This document shows positions 16,596-64,000 of a DNA stretch of 64,000 bases, piece after piece. Origin of the DNA: Gemmatimonadota bacterium (GTDB lineage Bacteria > Gemmatimonadota > Gemmatimonadetes > Gemmatimonadales > GWC2-71-9). Within the stretch, counting starts at the first letter, position 1, and the number at the start of each line of letters is the position of its first letter. The stretch spans positions 257-64,256 of the forward strand of contig JBDHAN010000009.1 of the NCBI GenBank assembly GCA_039588055.1, given 5' to 3'. The notes under the pieces were generated by a model that searched no databases, was not told the origin of the DNA, and saw only the letters and a program-made list of their open reading frames with translations. A program made the translations under genes and the position numbers.

Positions 16596-16874
16596 TCAGG
16601 ACTCTGCCCCGGTCTTGTTGGCGTCCGGCTTCTTGGAAGCGGAATCTGGTTTCTTCTCGGGAGGCTTGGGCACCGGTGCCTTCTTTTCACCCGCGCGCTT
16701 GTAGTCGGTCTCATAGAAACCGGAGCCTTTGAACACCACGCCAGCACCTCCCGTGATCACACGCTCACCCGGGGTCGCGCACTCCGGACATGTTGCACGT
16801 GTCTGGTCGGTGATCTTCTGAAACTTGTCGTACGTATGCTCGCACTTGGGACAGCGGTAGCTATATGTGGGCAT
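16596..16874 (-). CDS. FmdB-family zinc-ribbon protein with Lys/Pro-rich tail
   Basis: 92 aa. MPTYSYRCPKCEHTYDKFQKITDQTRATCPECA...KGSGFYETDY (CxxC...CxxC FmdB motif). Confidence 0.8.
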   Translation of the reverse strand: MPTYSYRCPKCEHTYDKFQKITDQTRATCPECATPGERVITGGAGVVFKGSGFYETDYKRAGEKKAPVPKPPEKKPDSASKKPDANKTGAES

Positions 16875-16909
16875 GGATAATCGTCCGTAACTACATGAGG
16901 TTGGCGAAC

Positions 16910-45404: not shown

Positions 45405-45455
45405 CAGTGGACAGCCAATATAAGGGGATCGCGAAAGTCGCGAAAGGGGTTGGAC

Positions 45456-49029: not shown

Positions 49030-50147
49030 CGAATCTTGAGCGTGGACAGGGCGAACAGGGCACAGAGAATCCCGATGATGTAGAACCGAGTCACGACCTT
49101 CGACTCCGCCCAGCCCAGTTTCTCGAAGTGGTGGTGCAACGGCGCCATCCGGAACACGCGATGCTGGTCGGCGTATTCCCGACCATGGCGCCGCTTTCTC
49201 CACCGATAGACGCCCGTTTGCAGAATCACCGACACCGTCTCAGCGGCAAACACGCCACCTACCAGGAGCAGCAGAAACTCAGATTTGAGAAGGATCGCGA
49301 CCGTCCCGAACGCGCCACCGATCGCCAGGCTCCCGGTGTCGCCCATGAACACCTGCGCCGGGTGGGAATTGAACCAAAGGAATCCGAGTGCCGCCCCGGT
49401 GAGGCTTGCGCAGAAGATCGCGAGCTCTCCGGCGCCGGGCAGATAGTAGACGAAGAGATACTCCGCCGTGTCGGTCCGCCCGAACACGTAGGCGAAGATG
49501 GCAAATGTCACGGCTGCGATCGCCGTGAGTCCGGTCGCCAACCCGTCGAGCCCATCGGTGAGGTTGACCCCGTTGCTGGTCCCGGTCACCACGAACGTCA
49601 CGAAGGCCACGTATATGACCGGAGGGAGTGTCACCAGTACGTACTTGAAGAACGGAACCGTTGTGGCATTCGGCGGCACGTCACCCCACACCGACTGCAC
49701 GAGGAGAAAGGTCCCCAACACGATGCCAAACGTCACCTGCCCGATCAGTTTGTAGCGCGCCACCAACCCGCGCGCCTTTCCCTCGATGAACTTGAGATAG
49801 TCGTCGACGAACCCGATGCACCCCATCCAGAGCGTCGCCACGACTGCAACCAGCACGAACTGATTGTCCAGCCGCGCCCAGAGGACGGCCGGCACCAACG
49901 TGCTGATGAGGATGATCAAGCCGCCCATGGTGGGCGTTCCGCGCTTTTCCTGGTGGGACGCCGGCCCTTCCGCACGGATGACCTGCCCGATGTGCCGTGC
50001 CCTGAGACCGCGAATGGTCGGCGGACCGATCACGAAGGCCAGGACGATCGCGGACACGGCCGCCCCTGCCGCGCGAAACGAGATGTAGTTGAACAAGTTG
50101 AAGATCTGGAAATCGGATCCAAGCGGCGTCAGGAGATGGTAGAGCAC
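49026..50147 (-). CDS. mraY: Phospho-N-acetylmuramoyl-pentapeptide transferase
   Basis: 373 aa. PTMGGLIIL, NGVNLTDGLDGLA, FMGDTGSLAIGG, PLHHHFE. Confidence 0.95.
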   Translation of the reverse strand: MLYHLLTPLGSDFQIFNLFNYISFRAAGAAVSAIVLAFVIGPPTIRGLRARHIGQVIRAEGPASHQEKRGTPTMGGLIILISTLVPAVLWARLDNQFVLVAVVATLWMGCIGFVDDYLKFIEGKARGLVARYKLIGQVTFGIVLGTFLLVQSVWGDVPPNATTVPFFKYVLVTLPPVIYVAFVTFVVTGTSNGVNLTDGLDGLATGLTAIAAVTFAIFAYVFGRTDTAEYLFVYYLPGAGELAIFCASLTGAALGFLWFNSHPAQVFMGDTGSLAIGGAFGTVAILLKSEFLLLLVGGVFAAETVSVILQTGVYRWRKRRHGREYADQHRVFRMAPLHHHFEKLGWAESKVVTRFYIIGILCALFALSTLKIR

Positions 50148-51493
50148 TACGCGTCACCACTCGGTATGAGATGCGGAATCACACGCTCGAGGCGCATTCC
50201 ACGCGAGGCCTTGAGCAACACGAACTCGCGCCCGTCCAGCCTGCGAGCGAGGCGCTCACCCAAAGTGGCGGGATCATCCGCGGTGAGCAACCGATCTCCC
50301 AGCTCGCTCGCATGCGATTCGAACGCCGTCACGAATGCTCCGGTCACGGCAATGAGCGCCGGTTGAGCCGCAGTCACGCGGTCCGCGACGGCGGCGTGCA
50401 ACTCGTCGCTCTTCGGGCCCAGCTCCAGCATCGTCCCGAGGACCACGACCAAGGGACGCCCGTGACACATTGCCTGGGCAGTTTCGAGTGCGGTCTCGAC
50501 TGAGAGCGGATTGGCGTTGTAGGCGTCGTGCAGCACGACCAGGTCACCGTGATGCAGCACTTCACAGCGGCCAAACGGAAGCTTCGTGCGTGACAACGCC
50601 TGCGCAGCATCGGCGGCCGGCACCCCCAGCTCCCGCCCGACGGCCAGCGCAAGCATCACGTTGTCCACCTGGTGAGAGCCAACGACGGCAAGCTTGAGGT
50701 CAGCGTTCTCGTAGCGGACGATCGGTTGCCCCTGGTCGTCGAGCTGCCACGCGGTTGGCCGCACGTCTGCAGCTGGGGCAACTCCCGCCACCACCACCTT
50801 TGCAACACGGGCCCGCGCTTCGACGGCCAGCTCGGGTGGCCGTGTACCGACGACTGCACAGGGAACGCCCGCGGCGAGGGCCAACTTCTCCTCCAAGACG
50901 TCTCGCTCGCTTCCAAACCCTTCGAGGTGCCCTGCTGACACGTTGGTGATCACGGTGAGCGTCGGCTCGATGATTCCGCGTAGCGTCGCGATCTCACCAG
51001 GGACGCTCGCTCCAGCCTCCACCACGAGAACCTCTGTGTCGTCCGGCGCCCCGAGCAGGGTCAGTGGAACGCCGATCAGGTTGTTGAGGTTGCCACGTGT
51101 CGCGTGCACGGACCATCGCGTGCCGAGTACCCCCGCCACCATCTCCTTCGTTGCGGTCTTGCCGTTGGTGCCTGTCACAGCCACGACCGGCCCCGTGAGC
51201 TCCCGGCGACGCGCTCGCGCGAGATTCCCGAGGGCCGCGAGCGTATCTGCCACCCGAAACGCGACCAGTCCATCCGGAACCGCCGCATCTTCGTGCACCA
51301 CAACCCCGCGCGCGCCTCGCGCAAGGGCATCGCCGAGGAAGGTGTGCCCGTCGAACCGCTCACCCACCAGTGCCACGAACAGCGCACCCGGTTCCAGCAC
51401 GCGGGAGTCCGTCTCGATCGACTGGAACACCGCAGGCGCGACGGGCGCCGTGTCCAGGACTCGCGCCACCAGCTCACTGGTCCAGCGGCTCAC
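50147..51493 (-). CDS. murF: UDP-N-acetylmuramoyl-tripeptide--D-alanyl-D-alanine ligase
   Basis: 448 aa. VTGTNGKTATKEM and DAYNANP, positioned between murE and mraY. Confidence 0.92.
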   Translation of the reverse strand: MSRWTSELVARVLDTAPVAPAVFQSIETDSRVLEPGALFVALVGERFDGHTFLGDALARGARGVVVHEDAAVPDGLVAFRVADTLAALGNLARARRRELTGPVVAVTGTNGKTATKEMVAGVLGTRWSVHATRGNLNNLIGVPLTLLGAPDDTEVLVVEAGASVPGEIATLRGIIEPTLTVITNVSAGHLEGFGSERDVLEEKLALAAGVPCAVVGTRPPELAVEARARVAKVVVAGVAPAADVRPTAWQLDDQGQPIVRYENADLKLAVVGSHQVDNVMLALAVGRELGVPAADAAQALSRTKLPFGRCEVLHHGDLVVLHDAYNANPLSVETALETAQAMCHGRPLVVVLGTMLELGPKSDELHAAVADRVTAAQPALIAVTGAFVTAFESHASELGDRLLTADDPATLGERLARRLDGREFVLLKASRGMRLERVIPHLIPSGDA

Positions 51494-52956
51494 TCGTGAC
51501 CCTCCGCTCCCATGAGCTCACGCACGACCTCCAGCTCGTCGAACGGCACTCGCGTTGTCCCGATCTCCTGATAGGTCTCGTGCCCTTTGCCCGCCAGGAG
51601 CACGACGTCTCCCGGCTCGACCATCACCAACGCGTGCCGAATCGCCTCTCGTCGGTCGCAGATGCGAACGTGCGAGGTCCCCTCCATGCCGGATTCGATG
51701 TCGTCGATGATGCGCTCGGGATCTTCGGTTCGCGGGTTGTCCGACGTGACGATGGCCACGTCGGCCGCGCGCGCCACCGCTTGCCCCATGAGCGGACGCT
51801 TGCTCCGGTCGCGATCTCCACCAGCTCCGAACACGACAATCAGGCGCCCGGCGGTCAGAGGGGTGAGGGCCGCGATTGCGCGTTCGAGCGCATCGGGCGT
51901 GTGGCAGTAGTCCCGAAGCACGGACGCCGGCCCGCTGGCGAGCAACTCCATACGGCCGGCCACTTGGGGTACCGTGGCGAGCGCGCGCGCGATATCTGAA
52001 GGGTCGACACCGAGTGCCCACGCTGCCGCGGACGCCGCCAGCGCATTCTGCACGTTGAAATCCCCGAGCAGCGGGCACCGCACACCCACGGCACGACCTG
52101 CGAACACCAACGTGGTCGACACCTCGTCGCGCCGGAGCTCGACGTCGCGCGCCTCAACATCGTACTCGGGCGAACGTCCATAGCTGATGCGGCGGATCTC
52201 ACTTCGCTGCGGCAGTGCCAGCCACGCCGGATCCTCTTCATTGACCACTTCGATCCCTCCGGGATGGAGATGGTCGGAGAGCTTCGCCTTCGCATCGCGG
52301 TAGGCGTCGAGGCTCGGGTGATAGTCCAGATGCTCGTGGGACAGGTTCGTGTACACCGCGGCCGCGAGACGCAGGGTTTCGAGCCGTCGTTGGTCCAGCG
52401 CGTGCGACGACGCTTCCATCACCACCGTGCTCGCTCCGCGGTCACGCAGCGCGGCCAATACGCCATGCAGCTCCACGGCACCCGGTGTGGTGAGGTTCCC
52501 GTAGCCTTGGAGTGCAGTGCCCAGGCCGTCGAACGCACCCAGTGTCCCGATCGACCCGGCGTCTCGAGCGGCGTTCAAGAGGTGCTTGAGAATCGCGACC
52601 GTGGTGGTCTTGCCGTTGGTGCCGGTGACGCCGATGACCCGAAGATCGTCTGCCGGCCGGCCGAACCACTCGCGTGCAACCACCGAGGCGGCGACGCGGC
52701 CGTCTCGCACGACGACCTGCGGAATAGCACTGTCGACTGGGGTCATGACCACGGCAACCGCCGCCCCACGCCCCCGCGCGTCCTCGACATACCGGTGGCC
52801 GTCCTCGACCGTCCCTGCGACGGCGCAAAAGAGCCCCCCCGCAACGACGCGCCGTGAGTCCTCGCTCACACCGGAGACCTTCACGTCGATGTCGGGCGCC
52901 GAGACCAGCTGCGTTGCCTGCCTGAGCGCCTCTACCAGAGCGCGAAGCGGCTTCAT
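51490..52956 (-). CDS. murE: UDP-N-acetylmuramoyl-L-alanyl-D-glutamate--2,6-diaminopimelate ligase
   Basis: From ATG at 52956 (ATGA overlap with the ftsI stop; track ORF runs to 53052): GVTGTNGKTTTVA, EASSHAL, GAGGDRDRSKRP, DNPRTEDP (the DNPR motif suggests meso-DAP specificity). Confidence 0.92.
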   Translation of the reverse strand: MKPLRALVEALRQATQLVSAPDIDVKVSGVSEDSRRVVAGGLFCAVAGTVEDGHRYVEDARGRGAAVAVVMTPVDSAIPQVVVRDGRVAASVVAREWFGRPADDLRVIGVTGTNGKTTTVAILKHLLNAARDAGSIGTLGAFDGLGTALQGYGNLTTPGAVELHGVLAALRDRGASTVVMEASSHALDQRRLETLRLAAAVYTNLSHEHLDYHPSLDAYRDAKAKLSDHLHPGGIEVVNEEDPAWLALPQRSEIRRISYGRSPEYDVEARDVELRRDEVSTTLVFAGRAVGVRCPLLGDFNVQNALAASAAAWALGVDPSDIARALATVPQVAGRMELLASGPASVLRDYCHTPDALERAIAALTPLTAGRLIVVFGAGGDRDRSKRPLMGQAVARAADVAIVTSDNPRTEDPERIIDDIESGMEGTSHVRICDRREAIRHALVMVEPGDVVLLAGKGHETYQEIGTTRVPFDELEVVRELMGAEGHE

Positions 52957-54869
52957 TTCGTGGACCGTGCGGTACTGGCGGTGATGGTAACGAGCGCACC
53001 AGGCGGCACGCTGTCTCCCGCCACAGGATCGCTGGTGTCCACGAATCCCCACCCGACCGCGCGGACGCGAAGACCGGCACCGTGGAGCTGACGCGAGGCC
53101 TGCCGCAATGAGAGCCCGACCACATCCGGCATGGTCCGCGGCGTTGCCGAGTCACGCGGCCGGACCACCGGCCACGGGGTAATCCACCGCTCGGGCGCTG
53201 CCTCCGCCGATCGCCGATCGACGGGTGCCGTTGCCTGTGTGAGTCGTCCCCGGTCCAGCGCGTCGCTCTGCGCGGCGAGCAGCTCCTGTAGCACGCGTCG
53301 CGTGACGGGTGCCGCGGTCAGGGCTGCATAGCCTTCGCGGGGGTCGGCGAGTTTCACGACCATCGCGATCTGCGGATCGTCAGCGGGAAAGAGCGACGCG
53401 AACGTGGCCGTGTACGACCCTTGGATGTACCCGCCTGGCCCTGCCAGGCGCGCCGTACCGGTCTTCCCTGCGACCTCATAGCTCGTGAGTGCCGCCGTCT
53501 CTCCGGTCCCGCCTTCGTACACGACGCCGCGAAGCATGCCGCGCAACTCGGCCGCCACCTCGCGCGACACGACGCGACGGACAGGCTGGGGCACGTGGCG
53601 GTATGCGACTCCCCCGCTGGGCGATCGGACTTCGCGAATGATCGTCGGCTGCATCATGAGCCCGTCATTGGCAACGGCGGCATAGGCCTGTGCCAGTTGC
53701 AGCGCCGTGACTGCCACCTCGTAGCCCATCGCCAGACTGACCGCACTGGTCCCACTCCACTGATGCGGGTGTCGAAGTATGCCCGGGGATTCAGCCGGAA
53801 ACTCGACGCCGGTCGGAGACCCGAGGCCGAACTCCCGCAGCATCCCAAACTGCTGGGCCGGCGTCAGGCGTTGTGAGAGCTTTGCGATGCCGATGTTGCT
53901 GGAGCGTCCGATCACGTCGCGCAGAGTGAGCCACCCCTCCTCGTGCTCATCGGTGATGATGCGCCCGTTCAGCTCGTACTCCCCGAGCTCCGCCCACACA
54001 CTGTCGTCTGGGCGAGCGGCACCCTCAGTGAGCAGGGCCGCAGCGACGAACAGCTTCGCGGTCGAGCCAGGCTCGAACACACCGGTCCACGCGCCGGCCC
54101 CGAGCTCTCCCTTCGACGCGATGGCAAGGATCTCACCCGTCTGCGGCTCCAACACCACGACGTCGCCACCGCGGGCGTCGTGCGTTTCGAGCGCGTCCTC
54201 CAGCGCCTGCTCCACGATTTCTTGGAGATCGGCGTCGAGCGTCAGATATACGTCATGCCCGGGCACCGGAAAGGCACCGAGTCGCGCTGGCGATTCATAC
54301 CGGGTGCCGCGCCGATCGCGCAGCACCACGGCGGTTCCCGGCGTGCCGGCCAACAGCGTGTCGAGCACGCGCTCGATGCCGCTCGACGGCCGTCCGTCAC
54401 TCCCCGGTCGCCCAGCGACGAGCCGGGCGAGATCCGGATGCGGATGGAAGCGTCGCAGCTCACTGGTGAGGTGCACGCCGCGGAGATCGCGAATCTGCTG
54501 CACTTGGAGCGACGTGTACGGCCCGGCGAAATACGCGTAGCGGCCACGAAGCCGACGCCGAACCGTGGCGAGCGGCACGCGCAACTCCTGTGCGATGAGC
54601 CGGGCATCTGCGGCGGGATCGCGGAGCTCGTTCGGCGCGACGCCGACGTGAAAGACTTCCTGGGTCAGGGCCAGCGCGGTGCCCTTGCGGTCATAGATGG
54701 TGCCACGACGGGCCGGGAGCTGCCGACGCTCCGTTCGGTGGGCGACCGCGGCCGCCGCGTGCTCGGAACCCTGGACGAGCTGCACTTGGGCAGCCCGGCC
54801 GACGAGCAACAATCCGGCGAGCACGAACGCCACCTGCACGAGCTGAAGTCGGGCGACCTGGCGTGCCAC
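52953..54869 (-). CDS. ftsI: Class B penicillin-binding protein FtsI (PBP3) with a C-terminal PASTA domain
   Basis: 638 aa. N-terminal TM, dimerisation domain, transpeptidase motifs (FEPGSTAKLF = SxxK, SSN, KTGTA). C-terminal MPDVVGLSLRQASRQLHGAGLRV...GDSVPPGALVTI is a PASTA pattern. Confidence 0.9.
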   Translation of the reverse strand: MARQVARLQLVQVAFVLAGLLLVGRAAQVQLVQGSEHAAAAVAHRTERRQLPARRGTIYDRKGTALALTQEVFHVGVAPNELRDPAADARLIAQELRVPLATVRRRLRGRYAYFAGPYTSLQVQQIRDLRGVHLTSELRRFHPHPDLARLVAGRPGSDGRPSSGIERVLDTLLAGTPGTAVVLRDRRGTRYESPARLGAFPVPGHDVYLTLDADLQEIVEQALEDALETHDARGGDVVVLEPQTGEILAIASKGELGAGAWTGVFEPGSTAKLFVAAALLTEGAARPDDSVWAELGEYELNGRIITDEHEEGWLTLRDVIGRSSNIGIAKLSQRLTPAQQFGMLREFGLGSPTGVEFPAESPGILRHPHQWSGTSAVSLAMGYEVAVTALQLAQAYAAVANDGLMMQPTIIREVRSPSGGVAYRHVPQPVRRVVSREVAAELRGMLRGVVYEGGTGETAALTSYEVAGKTGTARLAGPGGYIQGSYTATFASLFPADDPQIAMVVKLADPREGYAALTAAPVTRRVLQELLAAQSDALDRGRLTQATAPVDRRSAEAAPERWITPWPVVRPRDSATPRTMPDVVGLSLRQASRQLHGAGLRVRAVGWGFVDTSDPVAGDSVPPGALVTITASTARSTK

Positions 54870-54871
54870 CG

Positions 54872-55165
54872 CTAACGATCCCTCGTGCTGGGGCCTTCCA
54901 ACATCACGATCTCGCTGTCGGCCGGCATCCGGAGCCCAAGCGACTCTGCACGCGGAATGAGCACAGCACGGCTCTGCGCCTCACGGATTCGGCGCATCAA
55001 CGCGGCCTTCTGCGCCTCGACGACGGACCGTTCGGTCCGACGCTCTTCGAGCGCACGCGCGGTCACGTGTGCGGACGTCTGCCTCGCCGTCACCCACACG
55101 AGCACGGCGAGCACGAACAGCAACCATAGGCTGACCCAAAACCGACCTCTAGGAGTGGCCGCCAC
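54872..55165 (-). CDS. ftsL: Cell division protein FtsL
   Basis: 97 aa. Single TM (FWVSLWLLFVLAVLVWV) followed by a coiled coil. Position between rsmH and ftsI. Confidence 0.75.
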   Translation of the reverse strand: MAATPRGRFWVSLWLLFVLAVLVWVTARQTSAHVTARALEERRTERSVVEAQKAALMRRIREAQSRAVLIPRAESLGLRMPADSEIVMLEGPSTRDR

Positions 55166-56057
55166 AGAGGAATCCTCGGAGCTTGGCGCTGCGGGCTCGG
55201 GGGTTCATCGCGATCTCGCGATCCGACGACACGATGGGTCGCCGTGGATCGCGTTGCCCAAGGGCCCGTCCGCGGCACGTGCACACGGGTTGCCCGGGCG
55301 GACACACGCAGTCCGTCGCCCACTCTCGAAACATTCGCTTGACGATTCGATCTTCTCCCGAATGATAGCTGATCACGGCCAAACGGCCGCCGGGCACGAG
55401 TGCGGCGCGCACGGCAGGGAGCGCGCGCTCGAGCTGCCTGAGCTCGTCATTGACCGCCACACGCACCGCCTGGAACAGTCGCGCAAAGTCGGACGGGCCG
55501 CTGCGCGGCCCCAGCGCAGCTCGAATCGCGTTGACGAGATCATCGCTGATCCGGAACGGCTGCCGCTGACGCCGACGAGTGATGGTGGTGGCGAGCCGAC
55601 TCGCCTTCCGCTCATCGGCGTACTCACGGAATATGGTGGCGAGCTCATCTCGCGGGATGGTGTTCAGGAGATCGGCAGCCGTCGGCCCCGAGCGGTCCAT
55701 TCGCATGTCGAGCACGGTATTGGGCCGAAAGGAAAAGCCGCGACCGGCATCGTCGAAATGCCGCGAGGAGACGCCCAGGTCGAACAACGCGAAATCCGGC
55801 CCAAATTCCTGGATCCGCCGCAGGACCTCGGGCGCACCGAATCGGCCACGCACCCAGTGGATCCCCGAGGAGCCCAAGCGCTCTTGCGCTCCGGCGAGGG
55901 CGTCTGGGTCGCAATCCACGGCCAACACTTCAGCGCCGAGGTCCCGGAGCCGCTGGGTGTGCCCGCCATCCCCAACCGTTGCGTCGACAGCCCGCCTGCT
56001 GCCCGACGCCAGCTGCGCCACGGCGTCCGCCAGAACCGGAACGTGAGGCGCGGTCAT
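55149..56057 (-). CDS. rsmH: 16S rRNA (cytosine1402-N4)-methyltransferase
   Basis: From ATG at 56057: MTAPHVPVLADAV...DATVGDGGHT...FDLGVSSRHFD...ISYHSGEDRIVK. The longer track ORF runs through tRNA-Asp. Confidence 0.92.
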   Translation of the reverse strand: MTAPHVPVLADAVAQLASGSRRAVDATVGDGGHTQRLRDLGAEVLAVDCDPDALAGAQERLGSSGIHWVRGRFGAPEVLRRIQEFGPDFALFDLGVSSRHFDDAGRGFSFRPNTVLDMRMDRSGPTAADLLNTIPRDELATIFREYADERKASRLATTITRRRQRQPFRISDDLVNAIRAALGPRSGPSDFARLFQAVRVAVNDELRQLERALPAVRAALVPGGRLAVISYHSGEDRIVKRMFREWATDCVCPPGQPVCTCRGRALGQRDPRRPIVSSDREIAMNPRARSAKLRGFLCGGHS

Positions 56058-56083
56058 CACCGGTCCCTGTGCCGATAGACAGC

Positions 56084-56110
56084 GGCCCCGCGTGCTGAGC
56101 GCGCGGGGCC
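56084..56110 (-). terminator. GC-rich stem-loop (about 12 bp) between tRNA-Asp and rsmH; no U-tract
   Basis: GGCCCCGCGTGC-TGA-GCGCGCGGGGCC read directly. It lies 30 nt downstream of the tRNA 3' end and 27 nt upstream of the rsmH ATG. Confidence 0.3.
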
Positions 56111-56139
56111 GGAAGGAATCAACGTTGTCATGAGTCGAG

Positions 56140-56213
56140 CGGGGCTGACGGGATTTGAACCCGCGGCCTCCGGTGTGACAGACCGGCACTCTAACCAGCT
56201 GAGCTACAGCCCC
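56140..56213 (-). tRNA. tRNA-Asp (anticodon GTC)
   Basis: Minus strand: GGGGCTG TA GCTC AGCTGGTTA GAGT G CCGGT CTGTCAC ACCGG AGGCC GCGGG TTCAAAT CCCGT CAGCCCC G. Full cloverleaf folded by eye; CCA is not encoded. Confidence 0.9.
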
Positions 56214-56266: not shown

Positions 56267-58018
56267 CTAGCGGCAGCTATAGGCCTGCCTGAGTTGCGGT
56301 ATCCGCCCTTCGAACGCCTGGAACTGCTGTAGGAACTGCTGCGCCTGCTGGGGCGCCAGGGACGCGCCGAGCTCCAACGCCCTCTTCCCGCGCGAAATCA
56401 TGCTGGCTTCCTCTTCGACCAGCTCACACGACTGCGTCTCGGTCACCTGTGGGTCGAACTCGTAAATCCGGAACATCAGGCCGAGACCCAAGAAGAAGTT
56501 GCTCTGCTGGCTCAACCGCTCCAGCACATCGTTTTCGACCGCCTTTTCGAGCCACGCCACGGCGACCGGAATCTGCTGGCGCGTCTGCACCAAGGCTGAC
56601 CCCTTCTGGTAGTACATGACGGCAGCGTTCATCAACACTGACGGCTCACGGCTCGCGGTGGTCGCCCGCTCGAGGAACTCACCACCTTTGAACAACCGCG
56701 CCGTGTCGAGCGGTGTCGCCGTGTCGATCGGCAGGTCCTCGAGCAGGATGTTCGCCGCCGCAAGGGCGCTCCGATAATCCGTGGGGTCGAGCTCGATCAG
56801 GTGATCGTAGACGGTGACCACCGAATCGAGCATGCCAGCTGCTGCGAGGGCGCTCGCGTGGGCGCGCCACAACGAGACGGCGTCGGGGGCGTGCCGCACC
56901 GCCTCTCCCGACCACTCCAGCATGGCTGCCGTGTCCGACAGCGCCTGTGACGCCCCGACGATCTGCTGATAGAACACCGAGTCGCCGACCAGCGTCGTGT
57001 CGATCTCGTACTGGCTCGCCAATGATTCGAGCGCGCAAGCCCACAAACCGCCCTCGATGCAGGCCCGGGCTTTGAGCTGCAGCATCCCGAGGTCGGTCGG
57101 GTTCTCCGCGAACCACGCGTCGGCCAAATCACGCGCTAGTTCGTGTTCCCTCAGAGTAATCGCACCCGCCACCACGCCCATGCGGAGTTCGCGGTTCGCG
57201 CCGTCGACACGACTCTGCCGCGCGAACGCGGTCAGCGCTGCGACCGAATCTCCACTCTGTTGGTGCAGCCGGCCGAGGCGCTCCCACGCTTTCACCATGA
57301 GGGAATCACCTTGGACTGCGAGCTGGAGATAGGCGATCTGACTGTCCACCGGCTGACGCAACGCTTCAGTGACGATCTCAGCGCACATCGCCGCAGCGGG
57401 ATGGTTTGGATAGATCTGGAAGGCCCGACTTGCTCGCTCCATTGCCCGGCCGAAATCGCCGTTCGCTGTGCGGTCGGAGCACTCCCGTGCAAACTGCGCC
57501 GCGCGCACTTGATTCTCGAGGCTGTCGACGACGGTCTCGGCGAAGGTTCGGGGCGGATCGCCGGGGGTGCCCCGCACAGTGGTCCACCCAGACATACCCG
57601 AGCGACCGAGATCGACGATGTGGAAGTTCGCCATCGGCACCGGCCCTTGGTGCCAGACGCTCCCACTGATGTATGCGTCAGACTGGAGTGCCCGTGCGAG
57701 GCGTTCCTCATCGGCCCGGCCCAGCACTTGGTCGCACCGGTAGGCCGACTCCTCGAGCACCTGGCAAATCACATCGTTCTGCAGCACGCGCAACTTGTGA
57801 CGCATCTTGTTGCGCATCCGCTTGCGGACTTCATCCGCCAACTCGGCCACGTAGGCCGTGTCAGTGCCGTCGCCAGGGCTCGGGATCAGAAACAGCACTT
57901 TCTCATTCGAGCGCGGCACAGCAAGCTGCGCGTTCGCACTCGTGACCGCGGTCGTCACCGCCATGGCGGTACCGAGCAGGGTCAGCATGCCTCGTCTTCT
58001 CAGTCGTGTCCACCGCAC
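56267..58018 (-). CDS. Secreted TPR-like repeat protein
   Basis: GTG at 58018 is preceded by AGGAGGAG (7-nt spacer). It gives VRWTRLRRRGMLTLLGTAMAVTTAVTSANA|Q as a signal peptide, and the rest is alpha-helical with TPR-like repeats. The 714-aa track ORF extends across tRNA-Val and is not credible. Confidence 0.7.
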   Translation of the reverse strand: MRWTRLRRRGMLTLLGTAMAVTTAVTSANAQLAVPRSNEKVLFLIPSPGDGTDTAYVAELADEVRKRMRNKMRHKLRVLQNDVICQVLEESAYRCDQVLGRADEERLARALQSDAYISGSVWHQGPVPMANFHIVDLGRSGMSGWTTVRGTPGDPPRTFAETVVDSLENQVRAAQFARECSDRTANGDFGRAMERASRAFQIYPNHPAAAMCAEIVTEALRQPVDSQIAYLQLAVQGDSLMVKAWERLGRLHQQSGDSVAALTAFARQSRVDGANRELRMGVVAGAITLREHELARDLADAWFAENPTDLGMLQLKARACIEGGLWACALESLASQYEIDTTLVGDSVFYQQIVGASQALSDTAAMLEWSGEAVRHAPDAVSLWRAHASALAAAGMLDSVVTVYDHLIELDPTDYRSALAAANILLEDLPIDTATPLDTARLFKGGEFLERATTASREPSVLMNAAVMYYQKGSALVQTRQQIPVAVAWLEKAVENDVLERLSQQSNFFLGLGLMFRIYEFDPQVTETQSCELVEEEASMISRGKRALELGASLAPQQAQQFLQQFQAFEGRIPQLRQAYSCR

Positions 58019-58066
58019 GGCTAGACTCCTCCTGGTTTTCGGCAGATCCGTTGGCCAAACCACCGA

Positions 58067-58141
58067 TGGGCGAAGAGGGATTCGAACCCCCGACTTCCTG
58101 CTTGTAAGGCAGGCGCTCTGGACCAGCTGAGCTATTCGCCC
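58067..58141 (-). tRNA. tRNA-Val (anticodon TAC)
   Basis: Minus strand: GGGCGAA TA GCTC AGCTGGTCCA GAGC G CCTGC CTTACAA GCAGG AAGTC GGGGG TTCGAAT CCCTC TTCGCCC A. Cloverleaf folded by eye; CCA is not encoded. Confidence 0.9.
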
Positions 58142-58152
58142 GCCGAACCCGC

Positions 58153-58338
58153 TCACAGTGCGAGGCCTAGCGGAAACAACACGCAGTAGCCAAGCACCAG
58201 GAGCACCGGAGCCAGCGCTGTCGACCCTCCTGCCAGCAGAACATACCCGACGACCAACGAAACGACAGCGGCACCCAGCAAGGCGTAGTTCCGCGTCCGG
58301 AACCGCAGTCGCGCGGGCGATCCGACCCTCTTGTTCAT
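58153..58338 (-). CDS. Small two-TM membrane protein (DUF3098-like pattern)
   Basis: 61 aa. MNKRVGSPARLRFRTRNYALLGAAVVSLVVGYVLLAGG...LAPVLLVLGYCVLFPLGLAL. The basic segment, NY, and two TM helices resemble DUF3098 as I recall it. Confidence 0.5.
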   Translation of the reverse strand: MNKRVGSPARLRFRTRNYALLGAAVVSLVVGYVLLAGGSTALAPVLLVLGYCVLFPLGLAL

Positions 58339-58371
58339 AGACCCCCACCGTAACCTGAGGTTCCAGAGGCG

Positions 58372-59187
58372 TCAAGTTGTTGAATCCCAATACTGTTCGG
58401 GTACTACCCACCCCTCGTCGAGAGCCTGTCGACGACCCTCGTCACGGCGACGACGGCGGGCCCACAGGGCTGCCAGGAGCAGGGCGACGAAGGCCCAGAA
58501 GACGGTGAGCGACGAGGCCAAGAGGAGCCAGCCATAGCGTCGTCGCAGGTCTCGGCGCCAGAGTTCCTCGAACTGGCTCAGTGTGATCTGGTGTGTCGCG
58601 CGGAGCGCGAGATCGAAATCGGCAGTGCCTTGGAGCGTTGCGATTAGTGGCTCGAGCCCTCGCCCACCACCCAGGCGTTCGAGCAGGACGACGGCTGTCG
58701 TCGCCAGCGCGTAGGAGGCTTCGGCATCGGAGGCCGTGCCCGTTCGAATGTGCCGATTCAAGTCTCGCAGTGACGGCACCACACCCCGAAGCAGCGCCCA
58801 GTTCACCCGCAGCGCCTCGACACGGTCCCACTCACCGGCCGCCCGAGCCGCGTAGCCCTCGTCAAACCAGCGGGGCACGCGCTGGACCACGCTATGTAGC
58901 GCCAGATGCGCCAATTCGTGGCGCAGCACACGCCGGTGATCTCGCGTCAGCGTCAACACAATGGTGTTCGCCGCCGGAAAAGCTGCCGCGACGCCCCATT
59001 CCGGTATCCGGCCCGCCGTGAGCGAATCGAACTGATCCGGCCGCTCGGCAACCACCAGGCGGATCGGTCGCCGCTGGGGATTCGGGATGCCGGGCCACGG
59101 CCCCGCTCGATCGGCCATTTCCGCCAGAGCAATCGCCACGGATTCCGATCCGGGCCAGAACACCGCCGTGACACGTCCGACGTGCAC
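58372..59187 (-). CDS. Putative gluzincin (peptidase MA-like HExxH...WFxEG) with a C-terminal TM anchor
   Basis: 271 aa. VLRHELAHLALHSVVQRVPRWFDEGYA, then TM WLLLASSLTVFWAFVALLLAALW followed by RRRRR. Confidence 0.55.
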   Translation of the reverse strand: MHVGRVTAVFWPGSESVAIALAEMADRAGPWPGIPNPQRRPIRLVVAERPDQFDSLTAGRIPEWGVAAAFPAANTIVLTLTRDHRRVLRHELAHLALHSVVQRVPRWFDEGYAARAAGEWDRVEALRVNWALLRGVVPSLRDLNRHIRTGTASDAEASYALATTAVVLLERLGGGRGLEPLIATLQGTADFDLALRATHQITLSQFEELWRRDLRRRYGWLLLASSLTVFWAFVALLLAALWARRRRRDEGRRQALDEGWVVPEQYWDSTT

Positions 59188-59231: not shown

Positions 59232-60092
59232 CTAGCGTGGGGGCTCCTGACCCTGGGCCACGAGGTCCAACGTCTCGTGGCAGCGCTTGCCCCAGGGGTT
59301 GAACTTGTTGGCCTCATATCCTGCGGTCCATGTCCGCTGCGCGCCTTCGCGATCACCGGCGTACCAGAGTGAGCGACCCAACTCGTAGTAGGCCTCGATC
59401 AGATTAGGCCCCAGCTTGAGCGTCTTCTCGAAAAATGTCTGCGCGTCTTCGTACATCTCACGCTCGAGATAGACCAGACCCAGATAATAATGGGCGTAGA
59501 GTGTGGCTTTCTTGTCATTGTCCAGCCGGATAGCCTTCGACAGATGTTCGATTGCCTCGCCGAACATCTGCTTCTTCAGGCAGACGTACCCAACATTGAT
59601 GCGTGCCAGCGAATTGGTCGGCTCTTTGTTGAGCACTTCGTGGAACGTGGCGAGTGCCGCATCGTACTCCTCATGCAGCATCTGCGCCCATCCGAGCAAC
59701 GACTCTGCCCGGAGATTGCCGGGCGAGAGGGAGAGCGCTTTGGTGAGCGCCTGAATGGCTCCCCCGTAGTCGCCCAACGAGATGAGGCTCCATCCCTTCT
59801 CGATGAAGGTCGATGCACCGATGTGGTCTGCGTGCAAGCCCGGCGCACTGCTCGTGAATTGCGGTGCCTGTCCCCGTCCCTCGTCCTGAGCCACTTCCTT
59901 GTATCGATCCACGAGCACGCGGATGTCCTCCTTGAGCGTGCTCAAGTCCGCGATCGCTTGATCGACCGCCTTGAACAGGGCAATGATGTCCTGCTTGAGT
60001 CGGTCACGCTGCTCACCGCTCTCCGCTTCGTCGAGCCGCTTGGCGATATGGTCGTACGATGCGCGCAGCGAGGCCATTGTCGTTTCGCTCAT
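59232..60092 (-). CDS. Coiled-coil plus TPR repeat protein
   Basis: 286 aa. N-terminal heptad-rich helix (RLDEAESGEQRDRLKQDIIALFKAVDQAIADLSTLKEDIRVLV), then about 5 TPR units (AIQALTKALSLSPGN, ALATFHEVLNKEPTN, AIEHLSKAIRLDNDK, AQTFFEKTLKLGPN). Confidence 0.7.
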   Translation of the reverse strand: MSETTMASLRASYDHIAKRLDEAESGEQRDRLKQDIIALFKAVDQAIADLSTLKEDIRVLVDRYKEVAQDEGRGQAPQFTSSAPGLHADHIGASTFIEKGWSLISLGDYGGAIQALTKALSLSPGNLRAESLLGWAQMLHEEYDAALATFHEVLNKEPTNSLARINVGYVCLKKQMFGEAIEHLSKAIRLDNDKKATLYAHYYLGLVYLEREMYEDAQTFFEKTLKLGPNLIEAYYELGRSLWYAGDREGAQRTWTAGYEANKFNPWGKRCHETLDLVAQGQEPPR

Positions 60093-60129: not shown

Positions 60130-61752
60130 TCATGGCAACGCCGTTACGGTTTCGAGATTCGTCCGCGCGAGCTCGTGACTCGGGTTGAGCTCGAGCGCAC
60201 GATTCCAGTACTCGCGTGCCAGCCCGCGTTCCTGTCGCTTGTAGGCGATGTTGCCCAACTTGAAATACACATCGTCGCCAAGCGACGGCTGTTGACGTAC
60301 GGCTCGCTGGTACGATTCCCATGCGTCATCGTAGCTCGCGGAGCGATAGAGCAGATCCCCCAAATTCTTCGACAGCTGCGGCACTCCGAGCTCGTCGAGC
60401 AGCGCCTCGCGCAACACGTCAGCGGCCCGGTCTATTTCCCCACGGGCTTCCAACACGACGGCGAGGTTGTTGGTGAGCGACACTTGGCCCGGATGGGTTT
60501 CGAGTCCCTCCCGCAGCAGTCGTTCGGCGTCGTCCAAGCGATTGAGGGCCGCCGCCGACAACGACCGCGCCCAATACCACAGGGCGGGCAAGGTCGCGCG
60601 CCCGGCGACATCACGTGCCTCGTCGAGCCGACCCGCCGCCACCTCGAAGTCGCCTCGGTGCAACGCCCCGATGCCCCAGCCCGTGAGGATCCGCGGGTCG
60701 CGAGGCGCCAGAGCCGCAGCTTCCGCGTAGGCCCCGTCGGCCTCCTCATACCTGCCGGCCTTTTCGTAGGCGAGCGCGAGGTTCGCGAGGACGTTCGCCC
60801 GGGCGCCGGCGTGATCGACGGCCTGGCTCAGGTAGGCGGCCGCCGCCTCCCAGTGTGCCTGCTTGAGCGCGATCAGGCCGAGATAGAAATACGCCGTCCC
60901 GTCGGCCGGCCGCAGGTCCACGACGCGGCGAAACTCGCGGGTCGCCTCATCCAGCATTTCGGTCTTGTAGAAGGCGACACCGAGGTTGCGATGCTCGTCG
61001 GCGCGCGCCTCACCGACGGCCGACGTGCGGGGTGCCTGACTTTTACCGACGCGGTGCGCGAACCCGGCTGTTACGAGACCGTAGATGGCTTTGCCCACCT
61101 CGAATTCAATGAGACCCGACTCCTCGACGAGTTGAGCAACGTCGTGTTGCCCATCGATCAAGGGAACGATTCGCTCCTGTTCCCGCGTGAGTGACACCTG
61201 CGAGGCTTCGAGACGCTCCCGGTCTACCTCGAAGATGATCTGGAGTGACGGAATCTTCTTCTCGATGAGGCTCCACTCGTCGACACGGCGGGCGCCTTCG
61301 AGCAAGAGCGATTCCGGATTGATGCTGACGACAAAGTCCTGTTCGGCCGGGAGAATATCGCTCTCGAACGTGAAGTGCCCGCGCGTCCAAGTGAACAGGA
61401 AATACACGGCTTCCTCGATCTGCACCCGCATGTAATGCTCAAGGTCCCCCTGCGAGATGGCGCCCTGCGTCACCAGAATCTCACCGAGTCGCCTCTCGCG
61501 CTGCCTCGCTTGTTCGTCGATCCCGGCCTCGAGTTGCGTATTGGATATCCGTCCGTTCTTGAGCAGGATGTCGCCGAGGCGGTCCCGTCGATTGACGACC
61601 GAGGCATAGACGATGCTGCCACGATCGAAATAGATGTACCCGAGGTTCGTCCGATCGGTCACGGTGAGGCAGCCCGACTTCTGACCCAGTGCCAGGAGCT
61701 GCAGCACGTCCGCCAGCGAGGCTTCTTTCAGGCTTCCCTTAATCGCCATCAC
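60130..61752 (-). CDS. DUF4388 (PATAN-type) domain protein fused to a long TPR array
   Basis: 540 aa. IKGSLKEASLADVLQLLALGQKSGCLTVTDRTNLGYIYFDRGSIVYAS matches the DUF4388 N-terminal pattern, and the C-terminal ~300 aa are TPR repeats. The start (GTG 61752 or ATG 61749) overlaps the upstream stop. Confidence 0.7.
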   Translation of the reverse strand: MMAIKGSLKEASLADVLQLLALGQKSGCLTVTDRTNLGYIYFDRGSIVYASVVNRRDRLGDILLKNGRISNTQLEAGIDEQARQRERRLGEILVTQGAISQGDLEHYMRVQIEEAVYFLFTWTRGHFTFESDILPAEQDFVVSINPESLLLEGARRVDEWSLIEKKIPSLQIIFEVDRERLEASQVSLTREQERIVPLIDGQHDVAQLVEESGLIEFEVGKAIYGLVTAGFAHRVGKSQAPRTSAVGEARADEHRNLGVAFYKTEMLDEATREFRRVVDLRPADGTAYFYLGLIALKQAHWEAAAAYLSQAVDHAGARANVLANLALAYEKAGRYEEADGAYAEAAALAPRDPRILTGWGIGALHRGDFEVAAGRLDEARDVAGRATLPALWYWARSLSAAALNRLDDAERLLREGLETHPGQVSLTNNLAVVLEARGEIDRAADVLREALLDELGVPQLSKNLGDLLYRSASYDDAWESYQRAVRQQPSLGDDVYFKLGNIAYKRQERGLAREYWNRALELNPSHELARTNLETVTALP

Positions 61753-63704
61753 ACCAACTCCTCGATCATCCGGTCAACCGGGTCAGGCCAATCCCACACG
61801 ACCTTCTCCCGGCTCGTGACGCTCGCGAGCGGCGATGTCAGCACGCCGCTCGTCCGAACGGCGCGCGACGCTGTGTGCATCGCGCCGAGCGCCCCGTCCA
61901 TGAGCGCGCTCACGAACGCCATATCGGGTTCACGATCCTCCGCCTGGGCAGCACGCACGACGCGCTGCACGAGACTCTGCACGGCGCGGATGGAATCGGC
62001 GGGCCGGTCAGCCAGGTAGTCCACGACGCTATCGTATACTTCGTGATACTTGGCCTCGAGTCGCTGCCGGACCAAGGACCGGCGCAACTCGCGATCCGGC
62101 GGACCCAACGCCGCAACGAGTCCGCCTTCGAGGCGCGTGACGAGGCGGTTGTCCAGCCCCTCAACGTCCCGAGGTGGCTGCGACAGCGTGAAGATCAACT
62201 GTAACTGCTTCTGATGCAGCGTGTTGTAGAGATGAAAGATCTCTTCCTGCGACCGTTCCTTGCCAGCGAGCCCGTGAAAATCGTCCAGCAGCAGTGCCGT
62301 CGCACTGCGATACCGTTTCCGCCACGCTTCGACACGATCGCCGTCGATGGCATCGAGCAACTCGTCGACGAACTGCTGTGCGGACAGACACGCCACACGT
62401 GATCCAGCGGTGCCGGCTAGTTGATTGCCGATGGCATGCAAGAGGTGCGTCTTACCCACCCCCAACGGCCCAACCAGGACGAGTGGGTTGTAGGCGGTCC
62501 CCGGCGACGCAATCACCGCATTGGCCGCGCCGAGTGCCACCTTGTTGCACTCGCCACCGACCAGCGACTCCAGAGTCCATGCCTCCGACGGCCCCGGGGG
62601 CGGTCGGCCTTCCTTCAGCGCCAGCTGAACGAGTTCGTCGGCTTCCCGGAGGCGCTCGGGATCGTAGAAGACGGGGTCGCTCACCCGATTCGGATCGACC
62701 CGAACCATGGCGCGTTGGAACGACCGCAGCCGGTCGATGTCCCGCTCGTAGTCGCGAATGGTTCGCTCGACACCGGACGGCACGTCCTGCGTGAGCAAAC
62801 GCTCCAGGCGGCCCGTGCGATATCCCTCTCCGCCCCACCGCGTAATGGCGTCGGCGACTCGCGCCCGCCACGCCTCCACCTGTTCCTGAACGGAGTGACT
62901 CACACCGCTCAGGAAGTCACCGAATTCGTCGCCGGGCCGCGGTGTCGGGCGCATGGCTCCCGAGATCGCCACCGGGCGGGTCGGCACCTCACCGGCCAAC
63001 AGCTGGTGTGCCGCCTCTGCCGTGAGCGGCGTTTCACTCAGCGCCTGGTAGGCGACCAGGCGATTCAGGAGGCCGAGAAGCTCGCGGACGTTTTGGACGT
63101 CGAAGTCCGCCACGGCCTCGAGCACCGCCGGCTCCAACTCGACCCCGCGCTCGTCGGCCCGGCGCTTGAGAATGGTGATCCGAGTCTCGCAGTCCGGGAT
63201 GTCCATATCGACAACCAGCCCACCGTCGAAGCGCGACAGCAGGCGATCGTCCAGCTCCTGGATCTCAGTCGGCGGACAGTCGCTCGTCAGCACGACCTGT
63301 TGGTTCGCCGCCTGCAGCTGCTCGACGATCGTCAAGACCTCGGATTGCATCTCTCGTCGATGCGTGAGAAACTGCACATCGTCGATGAGTAACACATCCA
63401 CGCGCGCGAACCGCGCGCGAAGGGCCTCGATCTGCCCGGCACCCACGGCAGCGTTATGCTGCTCCACGAACTCATCCAGTGTGACGTATTCGACATCCAC
63501 ATCCGGTTGGAGATGGGCGGCGAGCTGGCCGATGGCCATGAGCAGATGCGTCTTGCCGAGGCCACTTTCCGCGTAGATGAACAACGGATTGTAGGCCGTA
63601 CCCGGGGACTCACTCACCGTGCGAGCCGCGGTCACGGCGAGCCGATTGGCCGCCCCGACGATGAACGAGTCGAACGTGAAACGGGGGTTGAGCTCCTCGG
63701 TCAC
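61749..63704 (-). CDS. Tandem DnaA-type AAA+ ATPase (two DnaA domain-III modules; no domain I, II or IV)
   Basis: 651 aa. Module 1: LNPRFTFDSFIVGAANRLA...NPLFIYAESGLGKTHLL, VLLIDDVQFL, VVLTSD, DRLLSRFDGGLVV, NVRELLGLLNRL. Module 2: NPLVLVGPLGVGKTHLLHAIG, ALLLDDFHGL, LIFTLSQ, NRLVTRLEGGLVAAL, SIRAVQSLVQRV. The GTG start overlaps the mglA stop (GTGA). Confidence 0.85.
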   Translation of the reverse strand: MTEELNPRFTFDSFIVGAANRLAVTAARTVSESPGTAYNPLFIYAESGLGKTHLLMAIGQLAAHLQPDVDVEYVTLDEFVEQHNAAVGAGQIEALRARFARVDVLLIDDVQFLTHRREMQSEVLTIVEQLQAANQQVVLTSDCPPTEIQELDDRLLSRFDGGLVVDMDIPDCETRITILKRRADERGVELEPAVLEAVADFDVQNVRELLGLLNRLVAYQALSETPLTAEAAHQLLAGEVPTRPVAISGAMRPTPRPGDEFGDFLSGVSHSVQEQVEAWRARVADAITRWGGEGYRTGRLERLLTQDVPSGVERTIRDYERDIDRLRSFQRAMVRVDPNRVSDPVFYDPERLREADELVQLALKEGRPPPGPSEAWTLESLVGGECNKVALGAANAVIASPGTAYNPLVLVGPLGVGKTHLLHAIGNQLAGTAGSRVACLSAQQFVDELLDAIDGDRVEAWRKRYRSATALLLDDFHGLAGKERSQEEIFHLYNTLHQKQLQLIFTLSQPPRDVEGLDNRLVTRLEGGLVAALGPPDRELRRSLVRQRLEAKYHEVYDSVVDYLADRPADSIRAVQSLVQRVVRAAQAEDREPDMAFVSALMDGALGAMHTASRAVRTSGVLTSPLASVTSREKVVWDWPDPVDRMIEELV

Positions 63705-64000
63705 CGCGGAGCCTCCTCGCTCAGTTTCCGCAGTACGAGCTCCGACACCGCCTTCAGCGTCTCGAACACGCCGACACCCCGGAGCGCATCCGAGGCAAAA
63801 CTCGGCACACCCCAGAAATTGAGTGCGTCGTCGAGCTCGCTCGGAGTGAGGATGAGGTCACCCGGAAGGTCCTGCTTGTTGTACTGAAACACCAATGGCA
63901 GCGAGCGTGCGTCTTCTTCGAGCTCGATTAGGTTGGCCTGCAGGTTCTGGAGGCTCGCAATGTTCTCGTCGAGTTGCCGAGCCTGACTGTCGGCGACGAA
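63701..64000 (-). CDS. mglA: MglA-type Ras-like small GTPase, C-terminal 99 aa; N-terminus lies beyond the window
   Basis: The frame is open to the window edge: FVADSQARQLDENIASLQNLQANLIELEEDARSLPLVFQYNKQDLPGDLILTPSELDDALNFWGVPSFASDALRGVGVFETLKAVSELVL. It is closely parallel to MglA (FVADSQ, QYNKxDLP, GVGVFxTLKA). Confidence 0.85.
   Translation of the reverse strand, partial: FVADSQARQLDENIASLQNLQANLIELEEDARSLPLVFQYNKQDLPGDLILTPSELDDALNFWGVPSFASDALRGVGVFETLKAVSELVLRKLSEEAPR

Follow-up and report, generated by a model that had tools for sequence, protein, structure and literature searches.

A tandem DnaA-type AAA+ ATPase encoded next to mglA in a conserved signalling gene cluster of Gemmatimonadota

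Known relatives of the tandem ATPase

Proteins of the DnaA type and MglA-based polarity systems are the closest described counterparts of a gene that lies near the end of a 64-kb stretch of DNA from a Gemmatimonadota bacterium (assembly GCA_039588055.1, contig JBDHAN010000009.1; the whole stretch is called the window below). The gene directly follows mglA and encodes a protein, further referred to as the ATPase, that carries the AAA+ core of DnaA twice. Among the DnaA-type proteins, Hda supplies an arginine finger in trans to the ATP site of DnaA. The known MglA-MglB modules work with TPR effectors (SgmX, Bd2492) and with RomR/RomX, and an AAA+ ATPase is, to our knowledge, not part of any MglA system described so far. 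The tandem protein is read here, with a probability of about one half, as an ATP-dependent switch or assembly factor that works outside replication, in a Gemmatimonadota-wide MglA/Roadblock-PATAN-TPR signalling module. The most likely task of this module is the control of cell polarity or of a process linked to the poles or to division. Both the protein family and the operon are real and conserved and apparently undescribed, and the case is best filed as that of an initiator-clade AAA+ core that was taken, after duplication, into a signalling module built on a small GTPase.

DnaA is the nearest known protein. Both modules of the ATPase match the Bac_DnaA family over its full length and contain Walker A and B, box VII and sensor-2. 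When compared with DnaA domain III, module 1 of the window protein has the full motif set and module 2 lacks only sensor-1. Module 1 is most similar to DnaA of B. subtilis (E = 2e-54 against 8btg; Foldseek TM 0.94 and rmsd 1.6 Å against 8bv3; about 42% identity). The other best solved relatives are likewise true DnaA domain III structures, those of Thermotoga (2z4r) and Aquifex (2hcb/3r8f), while Hda structures match much more weakly. However, the ATPase differs from DnaA by having the AAA+ core twice and by lacking domains I, II and IV, and thus DnaA-box recognition and any known helicase-loading surface. It also has a middle domain and a C-terminal peptide of its own, and it is encoded in a signalling operon and not beside dnaN. 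Instead of dnaN, recF and rpmH, the neighbours in the window and in all Gemmatimonadales-type loci are mglA, PATAN, TPR and division/cell-wall (dcw) genes. An earlier note on this DNA had already held that the protein is not the replication initiator, and this view stands. The ATPase does score 481 bits with the NCBIfam DnaA equivalog model TIGR00362, above the cut-off of 343.9, because the scores of the two modules add up. Its relatives carry the product names 'DnaA/Hda family protein', 'ATP-binding protein' or, in JGI annotations, 'chromosomal replication initiator protein DnaA'. The naming as DnaA, by JGI and for many members, is a systematic error of annotation and could lead origin calling astray.

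Like the modules of the ATPase, Hda and HdaA are DnaA-type AAA+ proteins without a DNA-binding domain, and the donation of an arginine finger by Hda to a DnaA-type ATP site resembles the role that is proposed below for module 2. Hda differs in that it consists of a single module of about 230-250 amino acids, has an N-terminal clamp-binding motif, acts at the replisome and is found in another phylum and gene context. With the Hda model TIGR03420, the ATPase reaches 176.8 bits summed over its two modules, against a cut-off of 194.8; with the other Hda models it reaches 30-85 bits against cut-offs of 268-300. At the N-terminus of the ATPase (MTEELNPRFTFDSF), no β-clamp-binding motif of the QL[SP]LPL type is seen by eye.

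With the MglA-MglB polarity module of Myxococcus, Thermus and Bdellovibrio, the locus shares a true MglA, two Roadblock genes and several TPR proteins. Moreover, a che (Frz-like) system lies within the same cluster in most Gemmatimonadota lineages. The locus differs from these systems because two PATAN proteins with cyclic di-GMP (c-di-GMP) motifs and the DnaA-derived ATPase are fixed members, and RomR/RomX were not seen. PATAN genes have been reported to flank mglA in MglA/MglB neighbourhoods (Makarova et al., 2006; Wuichet and Sogaard-Andersen, 2015). In the 2015 survey, the only one retrieved that covers the phylum, PATAN neighbours of mglA are occasional, and the entry for Gemmatimonas aurantiaca T-27 (GAU_1409) in Table S2 reads 'PATAN>MglA>-PATAN>'. 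The dash in this entry would be the ATPase gene, left unnamed, if it marks an unclassified gene; the legend is ambiguous. Neither survey names or discusses the gene that separates mglA from the PATAN gene 3′ of it. Literature searches on MglA with DnaA, Roadblock, PATAN and Gemmatimonadetes/Gemmatimonadota returned no paper that links an MglA system to a DnaA-like ATPase, in agreement with the earlier note, which knew of no description of this architecture in an MglA operon, and these searches brought up no polarity mechanism for Gemmatimonadota.

Type II AAA+ proteins (p97/Cdc48, NSF, ClpB) likewise have two AAA+ modules per chain, often one catalytic and one structural or regulatory. In contrast to the ATPase, in which both modules are of the initiator clade, these proteins belong to another AAA+ clade and form stacked hexameric rings. 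A double-ring geometry as in p97 or ClpB was rejected, as the Foldseek hits to p97, Rix7 and ClpB are sequential only, with an rmsd of 25-35 Å and a TM below 0.35. The analysis of the ATPase gave no sign of a ring or of a pore loop as in unfoldases. A role as an anti-phage defence protein was rejected as well, with PADLOC giving only P-loop-level matches of 27-30 bits.

Architecture and ATP sites of the two modules

The open reading frame (ORF) of the ATPase starts with GTG. In Pfam, the whole protein matches Bac_DnaA (PF00308) in two stretches (E = 3.9e-99). When the protein is scanned as thirds, residues 5-166 correspond to positions 1-162 of the 162 positions of the model (E = 6.3e-55), and residues ~375-531 to positions 4-161 (E = 2.9e-43). 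The two DnaA domain-III modules that the earlier note had recognized in one reading frame are hereby confirmed. The absence of domains I, II and IV, which it had also claimed, is borne out: Bac_DnaA_C (PF08299), the helix-turn-helix domain IV, gives no match at E up to 1 in the whole protein or in its thirds, no domain I or II is found with Pfam, module 1 already beginning at residue 5, and the hhalign probability is below 1% for domains I and IV. At both ends, the gene overlaps its neighbours as had been described. The stop codon of mglA overlaps the GTG start at 63701-63704 (...CGG TGA / GTG ACC), and the stop codon of the ATPase overlaps, in a GTGA at 61749-61752, the start of a gene that matches DUF4388 (PATAN) and TPR in Pfam.

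Modules 1 and 2 are 35% identical over 220 amino acids (E = 2e-40), without a repeat at the DNA level, the best match being 34 nt at 82%. Because of this divergence, the two-module arrangement is evidently an old duplication. A duplication made during assembly, the artefact that the earlier note had in mind, is ruled out by the same figures and by the presence of the architecture in more than 160 independent assemblies. Within the window there is no second DnaA-like coding region, and an identical protein (P0001) is present in a public protein collection. An AlphaFold2 model from 61 homologues (mean pLDDT 83, pTM 0.45) has an AAA+ base and lid at residues 5-237 and again at residues 375-602, an all-helical part at residues 260-365, and disordered parts at residues 242-257 and 607-651.

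Besides the two modules, the protein contains two conserved elements that were overlooked when it was described as two modules with a linker of about 150 amino acids "and nothing else". The first is a helical middle domain at residues ~258-366, with the consensus DEFxDFLS...W...W..EGYRT.RLE.LL...FERD..RL...F.DPDR. It can be aligned family-wide, down to 32% overall identity, and DEF..F, W, W..G and L are invariant or nearly so. When predicted alone by AlphaFold2, the domain has a pLDDT of 85. The middle third of the protein has no match in Pfam, and no structural neighbour of the domain was found in the PDB (Foldseek, best E = 3). A degenerate DnaA domain I was rejected as an explanation for this domain (hhalign probability 0.5%), as was a degenerate domain IV for either the middle domain or the tail (hhalign probability below 1%, no Pfam match and no Foldseek neighbour). 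The second element is the C-terminal peptide at residues ~628-651, with the consensus V[RK]SREK.VW.WP....R[VL][IV]E[ED][LM]x-COOH. In 130 of 164 members this motif begins exactly 19 residues before the C-terminus. A fixed register of this kind is what a docking motif anchored at the C-terminus would show, and the peptide is a candidate ligand of one of the TPR proteins in the cluster.

In module 1 of the window protein, the DnaA-like ATP site is complete (Walker A K51, Walker B D108/D109, sensor-1 S141-D142, sensor-2 R207), and its own arginine finger, R158, is variable within the family. Module 2 keeps Walker A K418, Walker B D474/D475, the arginine finger R524 and sensor-2 R573, and has lost sensor-1. 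For a census of these motifs, the B. subtilis DnaA numbering was mapped onto an alignment of 164 full-length members. The Walker A lysine is present in 163 of the 164 members in module 1 and in 155 in module 2. For the two Walker B aspartates the counts are 164 and 162 in module 1 and 156 and 152 in module 2, and for the sensor-2 arginine 156 and 150, respectively. The sensor-1 Ser-Asp pair occurs in module 1 (143 and 145 members) and is lost in module 2, where the positions hold L/A/M/S and A/N/V/S. The segment LIFTLSQ, which the earlier note had taken for sensor-1 of module 2, is thus a site where most members have lost the Ser-Asp of DnaA. The position of the arginine finger (B. subtilis R264) is Arg in 157 members in module 2, against Arg in 107 and Gly in 39 in module 1. 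All nine members without the Walker A lysine of module 2 retain the arginine finger of this module. The same trend is seen among 43 representatives of 50%-identity clusters, with the Walker A lysine and the finger in 43/43 and 26/43 for module 1 and in 36/43 and 37/43 for module 2. The strongest constraint thus lies on the ATP site of module 1 and the arginine finger of module 2, which is the pattern expected if module 2 completes the catalytic site of module 1. In a crude neighbour-joining tree, modules 1 and 2 of the core family fall into separate clades; the tree does not tell whether the low-GC branch, described below, had a duplication of its own.

Distribution and gene order

A word-indexed search gave more than 100 full-length relatives of 640-662 amino acids with 55-81% identity, and all those bearing organism names are Gemmatimonadota. 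Dozens more clusters, with end-to-end alignments at 32-54% identity, were obtained by an exhaustive HMMER search of 50%-identity cluster representatives. More than 160 full-length relatives share the architecture. A scan with the middle domain in one genome per species confirmed 268 relatives; because its query was an alignment of 10 closer sequences, 268 species is a lower bound and is skewed to the relatives of the window. The best 80 of these 268 loci are all in metagenome-assembled genomes (MAGs) of Gemmatimonadota, and these were searched by tblastn with the gene products of a reference locus on a 1.76-Mb contig (L001).

The gene order around the ATPase is fixed. On the 5′ side it comprises genes for a large TPR protein (-6.1 kb), a PATAN-TPR protein (-3.4), a TPR protein (-2.2), two Roadblock proteins (-1.4 and -1.07) and MglA (-0.6 kb). 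On the 3′ side there are genes for a PATAN-TPR protein (+1.95 kb), a TPR protein, a Peptidase_MA_2 protein, a 61-aa membrane protein and another TPR protein, followed by rsmH-ftsL-ftsI. In every one of the 80 loci with at least 600 nt upstream, mglA is located at -599 to -608 nt and ends at the start of the ATPase gene. The earlier note had pointed to mglA preceded by mglB as a neighbourhood to look for. In L001 and in two more distant loci (L084 and L088), two Robl_LC7 genes indeed lie directly 5′ of mglA, in a region beyond the window itself, and tblastn finds the Roadblock pair wherever a Gemmatimonadales-type locus reaches that far. The order Robl-Robl-MglA-ATPase-PATAN is also present in L084 and L088, with proteins that are 36% and 41% identical. 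In L001, the eleven genes from a receiver gene to the PATAN gene are separated by gaps of at most 5 nt. The whole block has about 12 genes and is bordered 5′ by ileS-dksA-like-lspA-rluD and 3′ by the dcw cluster, the latter being present in the window and in L001, L084 and L088.

In L088, a full che set flanks the block (323-3867 and 13577-17863), and the same holds for most Gemmatimonadales loci. CheW, CheY, CheA and CheC/X are encoded on the 5′ side, and CheR, CheD, CheB, a small AAA protein and two CheW proteins after the second PATAN gene. The small AAA protein of the che sets (L088; L086:1136-6540) has 265-272 amino acids and matches AAA_16/AAA_22. In L001 the che complement is reduced, in L084 only a receiver and CheC are left, and the closest relatives of the window (L002-L005) have no che genes, the large TPR gene directly following rluD. 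Downstream of the ATPase, the window has the short form of L002-L005, gene for gene. No gene for a methyl-accepting receptor (MCP) was seen in any che cluster examined; CheR, CheB and CheD require such a receptor. The earlier description of an MglA operon was right about the adjacent mglA, but the setting is a far larger module of about 12 genes, which lies in most lineages inside a che-type cluster.

Two deep branches have other gene contexts. In the low-GC branch of P0181, the nearest named relative of which is a MAG labelled Candidatus Cloacimonetes, the order is CheW-CheY-CheA-AAA-CheW-CheC/X-TPR(823 aa)-PATAN-ATPase (L086), with no MglA or Roadblock gene. In the branch of P0139 (L082), there is only a pair of a TPR gene (867 aa) and the ATPase gene, likewise with no mglA or Roadblock gene. 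Here (L082:3765-4667), the TPR-ATPase pair lies 3′ of two bactofilin genes and tsaD-gatC-gatA; after the pair come three large ORFs of 200, 729 and 563 aa, none of which matches a Pfam family. A conserved linkage to mglA, as the earlier note had supposed, is thus fixed across the 80 Gemmatimonadota loci but absent in these two branches. The large TPR proteins, on the other hand, are orthologous in all three contexts, being collinear with 30-34% identity (E = 2e-107 and 6e-82). In the deep branches both modules are fully DnaA-like with an intact sensor-1 in module 2, so the decay of this sensor-1 belongs to the mglA-linked branches.

Additional relatives have other domains attached. P0228 combines a degenerate P-loop in module 2 with a C-terminal receiver domain, and is encoded among Hpt and receiver genes. 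The giant relatives P0175 (1876 aa) and P0185 (1990 aa) have an N-terminal MshEN c-di-GMP receptor domain, and their DnaA modules are split by a low-complexity, Glu-, Ala- and Lys-rich stretch of more than 1,100 residues that looks like a coiled coil. P0186 (673 aa) has two Bac_DnaA modules and Bac_DnaA_C without a middle domain, which implies that the duplication of the DnaA core arose, or was kept, in more than one architecture.

The features of the ATPase and its neighbours in the window are listed in Table 1. The mglA fragment matches M. xanthus MglA (6h17/5ymx; phmmer against PDB, E = 2e-20, residues 101-192) and contains FVADSQ and NKQD; the part of this gene that encodes the N-terminal half falls outside the window. 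The full-length MglA of L001 matches with E = 1e-76 (5ymx) and carries the MglA-specific TVPGQ instead of DxxGQ. By these matches the upstream GTPase is a genuine MglA, as had been proposed before. On the other side of the ATPase, orthologues of the PATAN-TPR protein are found at about +1.9 kb in the loci that reach far enough downstream. Residues 58-109 of the window protein, in the helical insertion of the PATAN domain, form a tandem MshE-type c-di-GMP motif (RLGDILLKNGRISNTQLEAGIDEQ ... RLGEILVTQGAISQGDLEHYMRVQ). With NCBIfam NF053729 (cut-off 38), it scores 48.3 bits, and the two L001 proteins score 46.8 (L001:6627-7784) and 58.5 bits (L001:11923-13542). Because both exceed the cut-off, both PATAN proteins of the cluster are candidate c-di-GMP receptors.

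The L001 orthologue of the 61-aa protein also has 61 amino acids and an identical C-terminal sequence (LAPVLLVLGYCVLFPLGLAL). Because this hydrophobic protein and the Peptidase_MA_2 protein with its hydrophobic end are both fixed members, they suggest that the module has a membrane-anchored part. For the last TPR gene, the maximal ORF (56267-58411, 714 aa) extends across the 61-aa gene into the last part of the peptidase gene. Its true start is probably near 58100, because the orthologues have only 583-602 amino acids. The dcw cluster (rsmH, ftsL, ftsI, murE and further genes) occupies about 44000-56189 of the window on the reverse strand, and no mraZ was seen 5′ of rsmH in the loci with gene calls.

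Table 1. Features of the tandem ATPase and of the neighbouring genes, in window coordinates.
Feature	Position	Strand	Basis
mglA, 3′ part (last 99 codons; stop TGA 63701-63703)	63704..64000	-	phmmer vs PDB
Tandem DnaA-type AAA+ gene, 651 aa, stop included	61749..63704	-	ORF, Pfam
Module 1, residues 5-237, AAA+ base + lid	62994..63692	-	Pfam, structure match, motif census
Connector, residues 242-257, predicted disordered, variable in length and sequence	62934..62981	-	pLDDT <50, gappy family alignment
Helical middle domain, residues ~258-366	62607..62933	-	Conserved to 32%-identical relatives, AlphaFold2
Module 2, residues 375-602, AAA+ base + lid	61899..62582	-	Pfam 3e-43, motif census
C-terminal tail, residues 607-651, predicted disordered	61752..61886	-	pLDDT <50
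Conserved tail motif, residues ~628-651	61752-61823	-	Fixed register from C-terminus
PATAN(DUF4388)-TPR protein, 540 aa	60130..61752	-	Pfam DUF4388 3.6e-38 + TPR
TPR protein, 286 aa, conserved cluster member	59232..60092	-	ORF, Pfam, synteny
Peptidase_MA_2 protein, 271 aa, hydrophobic C-terminal segment, conserved member	58372..59187	-	Pfam 7e-11, synteny
61-aa hydrophobic (membrane) protein, conserved	58153..58338	-	ORF; L001 orthologue
Last TPR protein of the cluster	56267..58100, start uncertain	-	ORF, synteny
rsmH, 3′ of last TPR gene	55149-56189	-	dcw cluster
ftsL and ftsI, 3′ of rsmH	52953-54869	-	dcw cluster

Proposed function and alternative explanations

The reading of the ATPase as a switch or assembly factor in a signalling module draws on several signalling links, i.e., the che genes (as in L088), the receiver domain of P0228, the MshEN domains of P0175 and P0185, and the c-di-GMP motifs of the PATAN proteins. 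In the mechanism that is proposed, modules 1 and 2 would pair as an asymmetric pseudo-dimer. Module 1 would be the working ATP site and module 2 would chiefly donate its arginine finger to module 1, in an Hda-like way, so that ATP hydrolysis would be set by how partners place module 2 against module 1. These partners might be MglA-GTP, PATAN proteins or TPR proteins; by binding the ATPase at its middle domain and C-terminal peptide, they would control its hydrolysis or its assembly state. As inputs, the ATPase would receive the nucleotide state of MglA and, via the PATAN proteins, c-di-GMP, to which a che-type phosphorelay would be added in most lineages; the output would probably be related to the pole or the division site. 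The gene context and the motif pattern are in keeping with the suggestion in the earlier note of a nucleotide-dependent scaffold or second switch that works with MglA.

A number of observations weigh against this reading. MglA cannot be the universal partner of the ATPase, because the two deep branches (L082 and L086) have neither mglA nor Roadblock genes. The sequences in the motif census are related to each other, many of them by more than 55% identity, and with its pTM of 0.45 the AlphaFold2 model gives no relative placement of modules 1 and 2. Furthermore, because module 2 keeps the residues with which DnaA contacts single-stranded DNA (ssDNA), i.e., a hydrophobic residue at the position of B. 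subtilis I190, K222 and the KERSQEE motif, the protein may have a DNA-related activity. In module 1, the hydrophobic equivalent of I190 is lost (H, N or Q).

These residues are among the arguments for a different, unlikely explanation, in which the ATPase regulates the true DnaA. As a mimic consisting of domain III only, it would co-assemble with DnaA filaments, cap them or stimulate their hydrolysis, and so couple initiation to MglA, c-di-GMP and che signals and to the division genes. Precedents exist, since Hda acts via its arginine finger and Soj/ParA acts on DnaA domain III. Module 1 is, by the E-value and TM given above, nearly as near to DnaA as DnaAs are among themselves, each module has kept the arginines of box VII and sensor-2, and the ATPase locus always adjoins the dcw cluster. 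This last adjacency, however, is shared with the ileS-lspA-rluD side and is maybe positional only. Moreover, the ATPase has no N-terminal clamp motif and remains below the cut-off of the Hda model, and replication genes are absent from all loci, where signalling and TPR proteins are the recurring partners.

A more specific and still more doubtful variant is that of a phylum-specific coupler that joins MglA, c-di-GMP and chemosensory input to chromosome replication. Under control of MglA-GTP and the PATAN and TPR proteins, the ATPase would join DnaA filaments, cap them, or keep DnaA at one of the poles. Gemmatimonadota are named for their budding cells. If the coupler is true, initiation would be licensed only in the right compartment of budding, asymmetrically dividing cells, and a built-in 'DnaA plus Hda' mimic would have evolved as a spatial cell-cycle regulator.

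It is improbable that the ATPase is a nucleoid- or DNA-bound scaffold, the modules of which would bind single- or double-stranded DNA unspecifically and in an ATP-dependent way, and would tether an MglA/che complex to the chromosome. The Frz receptor of M. xanthus, FrzCD, does sit on the nucleoid, and the full che sets without an MCP gene leave room for a structural role, as do the initiator-specific ssDNA-contact positions of module 2 for DNA binding. Nevertheless, the ATPase lacks a helix-turn-helix as well as a basic tail, the hydrophobic I190 equivalent is missing from module 1, and the window's own clade is entirely without che genes. In addition, an isolated domain III of DnaA binds DNA weakly and needs a filament to do so.

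Adjacency without shared function, either of an unrelated ATPase inserted in a conserved operon or of a decaying DnaA duplicate, is very improbable. The two branches without mglA would agree with it. On the other hand, the length, motifs, middle domain and tail of the ATPase are conserved from 100% to 32% identity, its junctions overlap or abut on both sides in the window and in the loci checked, and orthologues of the large TPR partner occur in every context, which indicates that the ATPase is under purifying selection within the operon. Lastly, that it is the replication initiator itself, as the TIGR00362 score and the JGI name would have it, or an assembly artefact, is refuted by the missing domains I and IV, the absence of dnaN, the 35% identity of the modules without a DNA repeat and the more than 160 assemblies.

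If the ATPase belongs to the signalling module as proposed, an AAA+ ATPase would for the first time be assigned to a module of the MglA/MglB type, as a second nucleotide switch beside the GTPase, its GAP and the effectors. The protein would also be a clear case of the ATPase core of a replication initiator being exapted for signalling. The asymmetry between a catalytic module and an arginine-finger donor would make the protein a natural model for the evolution of Hda-like activation. For genome annotation, the DnaA label from TIGR00362 or JGI can mislead origin prediction and genome rotation in Gemmatimonadota MAGs. An association of MglA with a DnaA core would surprise specialists of both fields. 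Gemmatimonadota has few genetic tools, and the module of about 12 genes between rluD and the division/cell-wall cluster would offer a genetic entry point to polarity in this phylum.

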